Source: Candidatus Omnitrophota bacterium (GTDB lineage Bacteria > Omnitrophota > Omnitrophia > Omnitrophales > JACROU01). Taken from it: DNA of 64,000 nt. The position numbers and the translations under genes were made by a program. Location: positions 5,223-69,222 of the forward strand of contig JACROU010000024.1 of assembly GCA_016214265.1 (NCBI GenBank), in the 5' to 3' direction. Of the stretch, positions 1 to 64,000 are shown one piece after another; the first letter of the stretch is position 1; each line of letters begins with the position of its first letter. The notes below the pieces were generated by a model, which did no database searches, was not told where the DNA came from, and saw only the letters and a program-made list of their open reading frames with translations.

Positions 1-3000
1 TTGAACCGGATGTCCATCCACATAGTCGATCGTGCCATTGACTTGATCAATGACTCTGAGAAGCGACTGAACGATATTCGTTTTTCCGCTCGAATCCGTG
101 ACGGTGCTATATCCATATTCTGCGCCGGCAAGAGTGGTCAGTTGGGTGAGTTTTCCCGAGGCGTCATAAAATCGGACTACGTTTAAATCATTTGTGATTT
201 GAGTTTCATTTCCCGAATAGGCGTATTTGAATGTGCCCAGAAGATTTCCGGCGCGCGTCACGCTCGTCTGGATAAGACGGCCAAGTGCGTCATAACTCAT
301 ATCCATTTGCGTGAGCACACCATTTTCTGTGGATTCAATCTGAACCACCTTGTCATTTTGAACAATCGAGCGGCTCCCGCTTGCACTCGTAAATTCAGCA
401 AGATGCGCCACGGACACAGGATTGTTGTTGGCATCCAGCTCTTCGGCGATTCTATATTGGCGGCCATCGGTCATCGTGAGCCAAAACGGTTTATCCTGAC
501 TGACTTTGAGAAGAGTTCCATCGGCATACTTCACCTGCGTGAGAGCCTGATTCACGAAAGTAAGCTCTTTTACATCCGGCGTGATAATCAGAGCATCTTT
601 GAGATTGCCGTTGGCATCATGTGTGAAATTCTTGATGACGGTTCCATCCGGCTTTGTGATTTGGATGACTTGATCATTTGAAATGCCGAATACGGTTCCG
701 TCATGATCCACAAGTTCTTTTAACTTCCCGTCAGAACCATAAGTCCGCTTGAGGCCGTCACGGGACACGATGAGCCCTTGGAGGAATCCGAGAGGGTCGT
801 TGGCGAGTGCATATTGAGTTTCGTTTCCGCTTGCATCCAGCACACGATTGATCAGTCCAGACTCATCAAAGAAAAATTGGGTGCCGTCGCCCCGAGTCCA
901 CTTTTTGATTGTGTTGGAAGTTGTGTACTGAACTATTTGAGGAAGCGGGCTTGCGGGATCCAGCGTCACGCCTCCGCTGATTCGGGCTTCGTATCCATCC
1001 GGGGTTTGCGTGATTTGATAAAGGAAGTCCGTTCCCTGATACGCGATTTTTGAAAGCTTGCTTTGCGTGAAGAAAAATTCTGTGCCGTCTGATTTCCTAA
1101 AATCTTCAATTTCTCCTTGTGCATTTAAGGTGACCCGGTTGTCTCCCTCAAAAATATGCGTTCTCAATAAATTGCCGGAGACACCAAACGCATAGGTGTA
1201 ATAAACCACGCTTCCATTCGCGAGCACTTCGGCCTGGGCTCGTCCATCACTGTTATAGAAAATACGAGTTCCTTCAGGACGAAGTTCTTCGACAATTTTT
1301 CCTGCCTCAAGCCGGTACAAAACTTTACTTGCCGTTTCAATCCATCCGCCTTGAAGCACACCGCTTGCATCCAGGCTGGGATCAATCAAACCGGCCTCAG
1401 TCCCATTCAGATTAAACGTGATATTGGTCTTGCGCTCCGGCAGCGCCGGCTGAGCAAGGGCATTCAAGATCACGAGATAATAGGCCGCCACATGACCACC
1501 CCCGCTGGTCGGCACATCGACCTGAAGCAGATTGCCGCCGGAAGTCAGCGTGACGGATTTTGTCATGGGTGTCCCGTCACTGGTATAGGCGAGCGTATAA
1601 CTCGGATTATTCGTCAGTGTTGGGGAGTTGAAAACCACTTCCGGCAATTTCGTTTCGAGCATCACGTTGAAATCGAGTTTTGTTTCATTTCCTGCGGGAT
1701 CTTGTTCTGCAATCGAAAGTGTGTTCACACCTTCCGTCAGTGTCACACTTTTTGTCTTTTGCACTCCATCGACTGTGTAGACAAGCGAGTAATCCGGCTG
1801 ATTCACTGAGACAGCCGATGTCACCACCACCTGTGGGGCAATCGTATCGAGTGTCACATCGAAATTTAATTTCGTTTCGTTTCCTGCCGGATCTTGTTCT
1901 GTAATCTGGAGGGTGTTCAGTCCTTCGACTAATGTCACAGGTTTTGTTTTTTGAACACCATCAACGGTATAAGTCACAGTGTAGTCGGGTTTGTTGGTCA
2001 GCGAAGCCGAAGTCGCGGCGACAACCGGACCAACCGTATCCAGCGTCACGTCAAAATTAAGATTCGTTTGGTTTCCAACCAAATCTTGTTCGGCGATCTG
2101 GAGCGTGTTTAATCCCTCAACCAATGTCACGGGTTTTGTTTTTTGAACGCCATCGACGGTGTACGAAAGCGTGTAATCGGGTTTATTCACAAGATTCGTG
2201 GAAGTGACAGTGATAGCCGGAGCAACAGAATCCAGTGTTACATTAAAATTAAGTTTCGTTTGATTACCGGCAGCATCCTGCTCCGAAATCTGAAGCGTAT
2301 TCCCTCCTTCGGTAAGTGTCGCTGTTTGCGTTTTCTGTACACCATCCACGGTGTAGGAAAGTGTGTAGTCGGGTTTGTTAGTGAGTACGGCCGAAATCAC
2401 GGCGACAACCGGGGCAATCGTATCCAGCGTCACATCAAAACTGAGTTTCGTTTCGTTTCCAGCTAAATCTTGTTCGGCGATCTGAAGTGTGTTGAGCCCT
2501 TCAGTCAATGTCACAGGTTTTGTTTTTTGCACTCCATCGACGGTGTACGAAAGCGTGTAATCAGATTTATTGGTTAACGCGACTGAAGTCGCAGCAACTA
2601 CCGGGCCAATCGAGTCCAGCGTCACGTCAAAATTCAGATTGGTTTGATTAGCCGCTGCATCCTGTTCCGTAATTTGGAGGGTATTTACACCTTCGATCAG
2701 CGTCACGGGTTTTGTTTTCCGAACTCCGTCCACAGTGTAAGTCAGTGTGTAATCGAGTTTATTTGTCAACGCGACTGAAGTCGCTGCGACAACCGGAGCA
2801 ATTGAATCAAGTGTTACATCAAAATTTAAATTCGTTTGATTACCCGCCAAGTCCTGTTCGGTAATCTGAAGCGTGTTCAGTCCTTCGACCAATGTCATGG
2901 GCTGTGACTTCTGTACACCATCCACCGTGTAGGCAAGTGTGTAATCGGGTTTATTCACAAGATTCGTGGAAGTGACCGCAACAACTGGCGCAACCGAGTC

Positions 3001-63507: not shown

Positions 63508-64000
63508 CTAAGCCATGGTGGAAATCAGCTTTTTTGAGCGCTGTTTCAGGAAAATACTGTTCAGAAACGCCTGAAGAAAATATTCCGTGATGACAAACCG
63601 GTTGTTTTCCATGCGGACAAATCCGGATTTCTTCTCAGCCTCGGGATCCTGCGATAATCTGACGGCAAGCGCCATACGGAGCATATCCAAATATGTTTGA
63701 TCTTCCTTCGACGGCAATTTTAAATCCTGCCGGACAAGCGGCAATTCCGTACGGACTGGAACCTCAGCCAACACATCCGACACCACCTGATTGTCGGCCA
63801 GCCAGGTTACTTGATTGGACACGTTAAACTTCATGGACTTTTTCATCCAATTCAGGCTCCGGCGGCGCTGATCAAACGAAATCGATTTCCCCTGAAGCAA
63901 ACTCTCGAGAAAATCCTGTTCCGACGAATAGCCGGCTTTCGCAAGATTGATCGTGTAGACATTCTTTTCAAATTTCTCTGGCGTGATACTTCCTTTCCCG
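63508..64000 (-). CDS. Hypothetical protein, 5'-truncated by the window edge (>=160 aa visible).
   Basis: The track ORF 63508..63900 (130 aa) continues stop-free in the same minus frame from 63901 to 64000 (...GKGSITPEKFEKNVYTINLAKAGYSSEQDFLESLLQGKSISFDQ...). The listed Met is therefore probably internal. No recognisable motifs. Confidence 0.5.
   Translation of the reverse strand, partial: GKGSITPEKFEKNVYTINLAKAGYSSEQDFLESLLQGKSISFDQRRRSLNWMKKSMKFNVSNQVTWLADNQVVSDVLAEVPVRTELPLVRQDLKLPSKEDQTYLDMLRMALAVRLSQDPEAEKKSGFVRMENNRFVITEYFLQAFLNSIFLKQRSKKLISTMA

Follow-up and report, generated by a model that had tools for sequence, protein, structure and literature searches.

A giant-gene locus of Candidatus Omnitrophota: a 14,531-aa protein with a predicted SF2 ATPase module, its large neighbours and an inserted mobile ATPase gene

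It is well documented that the Omnitrophota encode very large proteins. West-Roberts et al. (2023) reported Omnitrophota proteins of up to 85,804 amino acids (aa), which are membrane-associated and have been proposed to mediate prey adhesion, and claimed a SecA relationship for larger giants (10.1101/2023.11.21.568195). Nielsen and Lui (2026) catalogued 916 Omnitrophota proteins of at least 10 thousand aa (kaa), 94% of them with a transmembrane (TM) segment or a signal peptide; in one survey, 24–28% of the Omnitrophota contigs bore a protein of this size, and mobile DNA was frequent beside the genes (10.64898/2026.06.07.730766). Here we analyse a stretch of 64,000 nucleotides (nt) from a Candidatus Omnitrophota bacterium (assembly GCA_016214265.1, contig JACROU010000024.1, positions 5,223 to 69,222 of the forward strand; hereafter the window, in whose numbering all positions are given), which is occupied mainly by gene D (13970..57565, minus strand), an uninterrupted open reading frame (ORF) of 14,531 aa and 43.6 kb. 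With this length D meets the definition of at least 10,000 aa of Nielsen and Lui, and lies below the set of more than 30,000 aa of West-Roberts et al. Giant membrane-associated Omnitrophota proteins are a known kind of object, so that the original prediction, made from the letters of the window, went too far in calling the system undescribed (10.1101/2023.11.21.568195; 10.64898/2026.06.07.730766). New here are a rare family, unrecognised by Pfam, defined by a superfamily 2 (SF2) ATPase module, a recurrent partner gene of the type of gene B, whose family is large and uncharacterised, and a shared N-terminal leader. We consider it fairly probable that the locus consists of an envelope-anchored mosaic protein, D, together with the separate, large and exported proteins E, A and B, and that gene C is an unrelated mobile gene.

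As predicted, six genes (A to F) lie on the minus strand at a coding density close to 100%: the six co-directional ORFs fill 98.4% of the window, and only 1,032 nt are non-coding. The locus resembles the described Omnitrophota giants of the Archaeovorin and Dockerin type in several ways: it comes from the same phylum, one very long ORF encodes a signal peptide as well as internal TM segments, most of the sequence cannot be annotated, a divergent DEAD-type ATPase module follows the TM zone, large genes stand co-directionally in tandem, and there is mobile DNA in the flanks. Unlike those giants, D has neither the set of glycosyltransferase, methyltransferase, glycoside hydrolase, peptidase and NUDIX domains nor Dockerin/TSP3 repeats in Pfam scans. 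Signal peptides and TM segments of A, B, D and E were called by a Kyte–Doolittle (KD) hydropathy scan. Signal-peptide-like N-termini were found in A, D and E, as anticipated, and also in B, and they are followed by Gln/Pro/Thr-rich linkers in A, D and E. Outside the leader, A, B, D and E were compared pairwise, and no mutual similarity was detected.

A module of ~1,400 aa in the C-terminal half of D (aa ~11421–12813; 19127..23305, minus strand) is predicted to be an SF2 ATPase of the DEAD/ResIII type with two RecA-like domains, as its motifs, Pfam ResIII and DEAD matches, and the structural matches of an AlphaFold2 (AF2) model indicate. The SF2 motifs I, II (DEAD), III, V and VI can be read in D, with an insert of ~330 aa between motifs II and III; they include the Walker A motif AGTGKT (22847–22864), DEAD (22376–22393), FSGFSGTL (21368–21391), GATRGVDV (20924–20947) and KRDRGVR (20828–20848), all on the minus strand. 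A HMMER search of 1.84 billion representative proteins with aa 11450–12400 as the query returned just 19 matches at E ≤ 1e-3, eight of which were at ≤ 1e-30 with identities of 29–36%. The homologous modules reside mostly within proteins of 2,000–7,800 aa (contig ends truncate many of these), and whenever a source name was attached it was that of a Candidatus Omnitrophota metagenome-assembled genome (MAG). The motifs common to the family are FH(R/K)IP(A/T)GxGK(T/N), DEADTS, RASLVGRA, APRLQQSDPYLAAHTQLVF, GFSGTL, FFxxGATRGVDV and QLxxRDRGVR. When six module sequences were scanned with Pfam, ResIII matched three and DEAD two, and SecA_DEAD (PF07517) matched none of the six. The homologue P0014 exceeded the ResIII cut-off. 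Clusters of TM-like segments lie upstream of the module in all the D-family homologues. D is therewith assigned, on the grounds of sequence, to a small Omnitrophota family defined by the SF2 module, which is placed downstream of a hydrophobic TM zone.

Sequence searches of the PDB with the SF2 region, and with a profile of the SF2 family, gave no real match. The AF2 model of the module, built from the six-sequence alignment, reached a predicted local distance difference test score (pLDDT) of 62 and a predicted template modelling score (pTM) of 0.41; in Foldseek it matched MDA5/LGP2 (E 5e-4), SecA (1tf2; E 6.5e-4, probability 0.96) and DinG/RIG-I. In common with SecA, RIG-I, MDA5, DinG and XPD, the module is predicted to have a pair of RecA-like domains bearing motifs I, II (DEAD), III, V and VI; the sizeable insert that separates motif II from motif III sits where SecA has its preprotein-binding domain. 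A specific kinship with SecA is neither excluded nor supported by these data.

The remainder of D is a mosaic in which little internal repetition was seen by self-comparison. Its composition is two-part, aa 500–7000 being rich in Tyr, Thr, Gly and Asp, and the C-terminal half having much Ala, Leu and Gln and little Tyr. From the N-terminus, the order of the parts is leader, JAB-like motif, YD/RHS-like beta regions with coiled coils, hydrophobic zone, HEAT-like region, Thr-rich beta region, coiled coil, ATPase module and two HExxH motifs. PDB sequence searches over all of D gave no real relative, and Pfam scans over all of D found only RHS_repeat above the cut-off. This family (PF05593) was matched in the chunks aa 1001–2000, 2001–3000 and 3001–4000 with 31–38 bits, against a cut-off of 22; the Tyr/Thr/Gly/Asp-rich region around them (aa ~560–3760; 46286..55888, minus strand) holds sparse RHS/YD repeats with helical interruptions. 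Further on, a Gly/Ser/Ala-rich hydrophobic zone (aa ~7140–7440; 35246..36148, minus strand) contains two strong TM-like segments with KD values above 1.9 (aa 7241–7267 and 7283–7304; 35654–35845, minus strand). D had been taken for a giant secreted protein; the two strong internal TM segments (aa 7241–7304) and the ATPase module mean that it is not a plain secreted protein. The Ala/Leu-rich region that follows (aa ~7900–8650; 31616..33868, minus strand) gave weak HEAT, HEAT_2 and Cnd1 matches and is likely an alpha-solenoid, and the Thr-rich beta region at aa ~8700–9660 has weak repeats of ~120 aa.

Two kinds of peptidase-like motif were noticed in D. The JAB/MPN-like motif occurs twice on the minus strand, as HAHTHIEDKPPSLED at aa ~377–391 within a first copy (aa 320–404; 56354..56608), and as THNHPESGEPSSTD at aa ~10291–10304 within a second one (aa 10231–10317; 26615..26875). 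These segments of ~85 aa, ~9,900 residues apart, are homologous to each other (phmmer 3e-5), and at motif level they carry the RadC/JAB-like HxHx6SxxD with a conserved Glu before it. The match to Prok-JAB is weak (E 0.28), a PDB profile search was negative, and an AF2 model, with pLDDT 36, is unusable; membership of the JAB/MPN family is therefore unproven for both motifs. At the C-terminal end a regular expression (regex) found the HExxH motifs HELTH (aa 13942; 15728–15742, minus strand) and HESTH (aa 14188; 14990–15004, minus strand), which are possible zincin-type peptidase motifs, the region that holds both (14990..15742) giving a weak Aspzincin_M35 match (E 0.002). By phmmer, this region showed no similarity to the D-family homologues. 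The C-termini of the family (D, 13970–14010; P0002, P0005, P0007, P0012 and P0018) were seen by eye to end in small-residue tails, which read ..KRAA, ..ASSA, ..ARAA, ..KISA, ..QSAA and ..LIAA. Residues 1–2000 of D are absent from a word-indexed collection of 5.8 billion protein clusters, although its neighbour E is present there; it is possible that no public protein entry exists for D.

Downstream of D, on the far side of C, lies gene B (6176..12034, minus strand; 1,952 aa). It starts with a signal peptide (IVFTFSSI) and a conserved N-terminal domain (aa ~40–480) with the motifs IQEAHANY (11771–11794) and TGGFH (10778–10792), and it continues with an internal duplication of ~630 aa (aa 474–1133 vs 1101–1757; 6764–10615), in which the identity reaches 85% over the first ~110 aa and then falls to ~35%. 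Each copy has one TM-like segment (697–722 and 1312–1336). Genes related to B were found next to other members of the D family, on three other Omnitrophota contigs. In L011 the D-family gene P0005 is followed by a gene of at least 3,419 aa, in L015 P0014 is followed by one of at least 984 aa, and in L014 a 126-aa 23S_rRNA_IVP gene separates P0026 from a gene of at least 834 aa further downstream. Each of the three downstream products starts with a signal peptide and has a homologue of the domain at B aa ~50–460 (phmmer E 1.5e-16 in L011, 4.7e-25 in L014 and 1.4e-25 in L015), with shared motifs that include IQ(D/E)AH(A/C)(N/D)(Y/F)xAQ(K/Q)NI and TGGFH. Thus, three independent contigs keep the order in which a B-type gene comes after a D-type giant. 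The neighbourhood that had been expected to be conserved is so for the giant and its B-like gene, in L011, L014 and L015, but not for the DUF4143 ATPase encoded by C, which is absent from all three pairs.

The other D-family loci are arranged differently. In L012/L013 the gene P0007 is followed by one of at least 4,826 aa, and in L010 the D-family gene is followed by unrelated genes on the opposite strand. In L009, P0002 (7,525 aa) has a giant of at least 9,196 aa and the genes of two small exported proteins on its upstream side, and Rrf2/Suf genes downstream. The upstream giant of L009 (L009:1–9929) is co-directional with P0002, and the part of it that was read begins like a NAD-dependent epimerase. 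One of the small exported proteins (91 aa) has the hydrophobic segment LFAFFITQ; the other (246 aa) shares a domain with the downstream giant of L012 (E 1e-13 to 1e-16). The 23S_rRNA_IVP gene of L014 (L014:15534–15914) occupies the spacer between the giant and the B-type gene, and this spacer may be an insertion hot spot.

An alignment scan with the B domain gave 411 confirmed relatives in the JGI metagenomes, and their context was evaluated for the 80 best loci (L017–L096). In these the domain occurs as a protein of ~450–550 aa or as the N-terminal end of proteins of 1–4 kaa. A co-directional ORF of at least 1,500 aa lies upstream in 13 of the 41 B-type loci that have at least 6 kb of upstream sequence, so that B-type proteins are often, not exclusively, tied to very large genes. 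Within the family the invariant residues, numbered on the aligned segment that begins at B residue 40, are Q43, A45, H46, Q52, E80, G81, G133, Y140, F345, Y346, R352, G377, G378, H380 and P400. B had been called ChaN-like. B itself gives no match to ChaN (PF04187), and 7 of 32 family members give weak, sub-threshold ones, the best at E 0.036. A profile of these 32 sequences found no solved structure in the PDB. The family shares with the Tiki/ChaN/TraB-PrgY proteins (PF04187) two His motifs (Q-D/E-A-H and G-G-F-H) and conserved Glu and Gly residues, and the two His motifs resemble the paired GxxH motifs of that superfamily; unlike Tiki/ChaN, B lacks a PF04187 match, and the B domain is also found fused to bodies of 1–4 kaa. 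The N-terminal domain of B is possibly a very divergent fold of the Tiki/ChaN type.

The third element of the locus is the leader at the N-termini of D and E, gene E (57771..63410, minus strand; 1,879 aa) being the next one upstream of D. In D the leader cassette (aa 1–150; 57116..57565, minus strand) consists of a hydrophobic segment (KD 1.52) with FTFLFTQV (57449–57472), a Gln/Pro linker, the octamer QPSASGQV and EFMFEESPL (57146–57172); in E (aa 1–130; 63021..63410, minus strand) the corresponding motifs are FVFTQV (63282–63299) and DFMSDSSSL (63057–63083). The octamer, which had been noticed in both proteins, stands at aa 80–87 of D (57305–57328) and aa 72–79 of E (63174–63197). Its codons differ at synonymous sites, which shows that the octamer was not copied recently. 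An alignment of D 1–170 with E 1–160 brings together FxFTQV, which falls within the hydrophobic stretch, and also PLY, PxPQP and the identical octamer; about 30–45 residues past the octamer both proteins have (D/E)FMxxxSxLSxxExE. The Smith–Waterman score of the two leaders is 103, to be compared with a mean of 36 for global shuffles (z = 9.4) and of 52 for shuffles of 15-residue blocks, which keep the local composition (z = 5.7); none of 300 shuffles reached the score. The similarity of the D and E N-termini is, on these alignment statistics, more than a low-complexity coincidence.

Elements of the leader recur outside D and E. Gene A bears SFMTQSSTL (5620–5646) at an equivalent distance from its N-terminus, the short FMxxxSxL-type motif being all that it has in common with D and E. 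The downstream giant of L012 (at least 4,826 aa) begins with FVIFTFLATQ, a Gln-rich spacer and TSFLTGQNPL, and its N-terminus compares with that of A at z = 6.1 and 3.6, and with that of D at z = 5.9 and 3.0 (global and block shuffles, respectively). The signal peptide of B resembles that of E (z 5.2). A regex, [STDE]F[ML]xxx[SNQ][PST]L, derived post hoc and hence used as an argument for specificity and not as a formal test, had only four distinct hits when the six-frame ORFs of the window and of 13 loci (210,729 aa) were searched, all of them at residue ~100–135 of A, D, E and the downstream giant of L012, that is, in two genomes. A class III (prepilin) signal was considered for the ‘FTL/FTF’ segments and rejected, G-1 and E+5 being missing and NCBIfam giving no match.

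The likeness of D and E extends to their 5' sides. A promoter-like element, TTTTGACA-N10-TCACCTGTTA, lies upstream of D (57627..57671, minus strand) and a similar one upstream of E (63460–63504, minus strand), with the common form TTTTGACA-N10-TCACNTGTTA, i.e. TTTTGACA-N10-TCAC(C/G)TGTTA; the start context AGCAATG is also similar in the two genes. Searched with mismatches over the window, the pattern performed no better than chance, and its support is the pairwise D/E alignment alone. This likeness points to co-regulation of the two genes or to a copying of their entire 5' module.

Gene C (12216..13658, minus strand; 480 aa), between D and B, is indeed a DUF4143-type AAA+ ATPase, with 111.4 bits to AAA_14 and 95.2 bits to DUF4143, both above the Pfam cut-offs; it also matches PDC-S01, a candidate single-gene defence family of PADLOC, over residues 29–477 (E 2.9e-56). 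It had been counted as part of the system, and this did not stand. The relatives of C were collected by scanning one genome per species (loci L001–L008). Copies 95%, 93% and 91% identical at the aa level occur in three MAGs, two labelled Omnitrophota and one Planctomycetia, a copy of 80% identity in another Omnitrophota MAG, and copies of 69–75% in MAGs labelled Elusimicrobia and Planctomycetales. At the nucleotide level the identity with other MAGs is 85–91% and is confined to 12216–13737, a cassette on the minus strand that comprises the ORF of C and ~75 nt upstream, with a perfect 32-nt palindrome (13671–13702). The neighbours of the copies at the eight other MAG loci are genes of ordinary size, none similar to A, B, D or E. 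Since near-identical copies stand beside unrelated genes and the identity ends at the edges of the cassette, C is an independent mobile candidate defence gene, which landed in the spacer between D and B. It resembles the AAA_14/DUF4143 ATPases of PDC-S01 in having both domains, a full-length match, a stand-alone gene and a palindromic upstream region, and nothing distinguishes it from them except its insertion at this site. The copies in MAGs labelled Planctomycetia or Elusimicrobia may reflect horizontal transfer or contamination during binning. An imperfect (84%) direct repeat of 44 nt flanks the cassette (12118–12161 and 13865–13908), and its right copy belongs to a hairpin with a T-run past the stop codon of D (13878–13892 / 13925–13939). 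The repeat may be a duplicated terminator or the target-site footprint of an insertion.

Gene A (1..5937, minus strand; start TTG at 5937, or at 5961) has its C-terminal end cut by the window. Its signal peptide (AFA/QATP) is followed by a Gln/Thr linker, by an array of Big_13 (PF19077; E 1e-45) made of 11.7 tandem units of 192 nt (64 aa) with 71–76% matches between copies (1835–4086), and, after the array, by an RHS_repeat (PF05593) match of 40.5 bits, with a cut-off of 22. Between the leader and the Big_13 array, a low-complexity zone rich in Tyr, Asn, Gly and Trp was observed (4624–5136; open-frame aa 280–450), e.g. NNFYNFYNYYNPYNGYG and YYSGYWNSWGYGYYQNYYGNYYYQNY. NCBIfam found no Rhs core or YD match in the part of A inside the window. 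YD repeats, which had been described in A, D and E, were thus found in A and D; E gives no RHS_repeat match even at E ≤ 1, and a YD-like stretch at aa ~650–790 is visible by eye only. E is 100% identical to ‘MAG: hypothetical protein HZC17_02630 [Candidatus Omnitrophica bacterium]’ and has no relative besides itself in the word-indexed protein collection. It contains three copies of a module of ~100–160 aa (aa 415–653, 1313–1476 and 1517–1695; phmmer down to 3.5e-11), which end in (K/R/N)DGx(I/V)Dxx(A/L)F; by eye these ends look EF-hand- or dockerin-like, without a Pfam match. Gene F (63508..>64000, minus strand) is represented by its C-terminal 163 codons, the N-terminal end being cut and the frame open to the right edge; a search with these 163 codons found no family match. 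A tRNA-Pro called by ARAGORN antisense to E (58846–58935, plus strand; 90 nt) is most likely a false positive, with no Rfam match at the gathering score.

A and D resemble the RHS/YD proteins (PF05593; Rhs toxins, TcB/TcC, teneurins) in carrying such repeats in exported proteins, and A recalls the wall-associated Rhs proteins in the combination of Ig-like (Big_13) repeats with a YD region. Unlike the RHS/YD toxins, the locus shows neither an RHS-associated core or DPxGL autoprotease motif nor a toxin/immunity pair, D has no contiguous array of shell length, and E has no detectable RHS/YD repeats. In fact, the RHS-core regex DP.G[LWIVM] finds nothing in A (the part inside the window), B, D or E.

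These observations can be put together as follows. By way of the leader, D, E and A would be exported or anchored in a Sec-dependent manner, as would B through its similar signal peptide. The lineage-specific leader that D and E, and more weakly A, have in common is made of a hydrophobic segment with F-x-F-x-x-T-Q, a Gln/Pro linker and [STDE]F[ML]xxx[SNQ][PST]L, and would be an export or processing signal. The N-terminal half of D, with its YD/RHS-like hairpins and coiled coils, would lie on the outer side of the cytoplasmic membrane and form a surface for attachment or contact, as has been proposed for other Omnitrophota giants, and the central Gly-rich hydrophobic zone would anchor the protein. 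The C-terminal half, with the HEAT-like solenoid, the ATPase motor and the HExxH motifs, would supply energy-dependent and possibly proteolytic functions, the ATPase and the peptidase-like motifs acting on the cytoplasmic side or after delivery. As the downstream partner of D-type giants, B is conserved. An attachment or surface system, which might serve for contact with prey, is a reasonable, unproven interpretation of these sequences.

Several points weigh against it. With two strong internal TM segments, the ATPase and the exported N-terminal half would share one side of the membrane; a weaker, third hydrophobic stretch may be present in D. For the greater part of D, and for E as a whole, neither homologues nor domains were detected, and the function of the locus is deduced from sequence. 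The N-termini of A and D, and of A and E, which were expected to align like those of D and E, are not significantly similar (z 1.2–1.6). The leader motifs are short, besides the post hoc origin of the regex, and scans of genome and of metagenome contigs with a leader pattern that did not include QPSASGQV yielded ~600 stretches each, none of which was confirmed; a degenerate pattern made by hand was discarded as too unspecific, since about 1,000 matches would arise from it by chance. A profile of the leader retrieved nothing from the word-indexed collection, E included, and no weight is given to this negative. A B-like neighbour is missing at the D-family loci L009, L010 and L012, and the SF2 module of D was found in none of the 80 best B-type loci, which means that B-type proteins do not belong with D-type giants alone. 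Finally, unlike the published giant-gene neighbourhoods, the six genes of the window include no type II secretion system (T2SS)- or type IV pilus-like genes and no pilZ gene.

Other explanations were weighed against the reading of an anchored D beside separate exported proteins. The locus might be no system at all, with unrelated large exported genes that happen to adjoin and an N-terminal likeness due to the signal-peptide style of the lineage and to low-complexity linkers. We regard this as unlikely, while granting it a certain chance: A, B, D and E are mutually dissimilar in their bodies, no significant similarity links the N-terminus of A with that of D or E, the resemblance of the signal peptides of B and E (z 5.2) suggests a general lineage style, the leader-pattern scans of the two collections found nothing, and most B-like genes are not beside D-type giants. 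However, the D–E likeness survives a block shuffling that preserves composition (z 5.7), the identical octamer is written in different codons, D and E have a promoter-like element in common, the order from D to B recurs on three independent contigs, and the FM motif keeps its distance to the N-terminus in four proteins, which come from two genomes. It is, in turn, improbable that the locus encodes a contact-dependent weapon of the RHS/polymorphic-toxin kind, in which the YD shells of A and D would encapsulate C-terminal toxins or deliver them into prey; a surface weapon was one option of the original prediction. A and D do match RHS_repeat, but the YD repeats are sparse and interrupted, short of a contiguous array of cocoon length, and no RHS-core motif was found in B, D, E or the part of A inside the window, nor an NCBIfam match to an Rhs core or YD in A. 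The two HExxH motifs with the weak Aspzincin_M35 match at the C-terminal end of D would suit a toxin, the two JAB-like motifs could serve as processing peptidases, and the hydrophobic Gly-zipper zone could enter a target membrane; the conserved part of the D family, however, is the SF2 ATPase and not a toxin. No recognisable toxin domain or immunity gene was found in the 64 kb, nor do the six genes include T2SS, type IX (T9SS), type VI (T6SS), or type V secretion system (T5SS)/Tc partner, pilus or pilZ genes.

A variant in which the leader of D, E, A and the L012 giant is a dedicated sorting or processing signal of very large exported Omnitrophota proteins, recognised or cleaved by a B-type protein with its divergent Tiki/ChaN-like (metalloprotease-like) N-terminal domain, and forms with the SF2 motor of D a lineage-specific pathway for the export and maturation of giant surface proteins, seems to us quite doubtful, more so than the weapon. 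We attach very little probability to the idea that C is a functional component of the giant-protein system, e.g. a chaperone or unfoldase: nothing else than its position between D and B speaks for it, and near-identical copies occur at eight other MAG loci with no relative of A, B, D or E nearby, the DNA identity ends exactly at the cassette edges, the D–B pairs of L011 and L015 do without it, the spacer of L014 has a different small gene, and the PDC-S01 match points elsewhere. Hardly any credence is left for the 43.6-kb ORF of D as an artefact of assembly or annotation. Its first 2,000 aa, the part that was tested, are absent from the 5.8-billion-cluster collection in which E is present, but the frame is unbroken over 14,531 codons with coding-like composition throughout, there is scarcely any internal repetition able to cause misassembly, and independent contigs encode homologues in the same order, TM zone and then SF2 module.

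The giant genes of the Omnitrophota are recognised and yet functionally opaque, and this locus offers three testable handles on them, namely the SF2 family, the pair of giant and B-type gene, and the leader. The shared leader could explain how several very large proteins are jointly routed or processed. Moreover, the entry of small selfish or defence genes into the spacer between a giant and its partner is a caution against counting every neighbour of a giant gene as part of its system.

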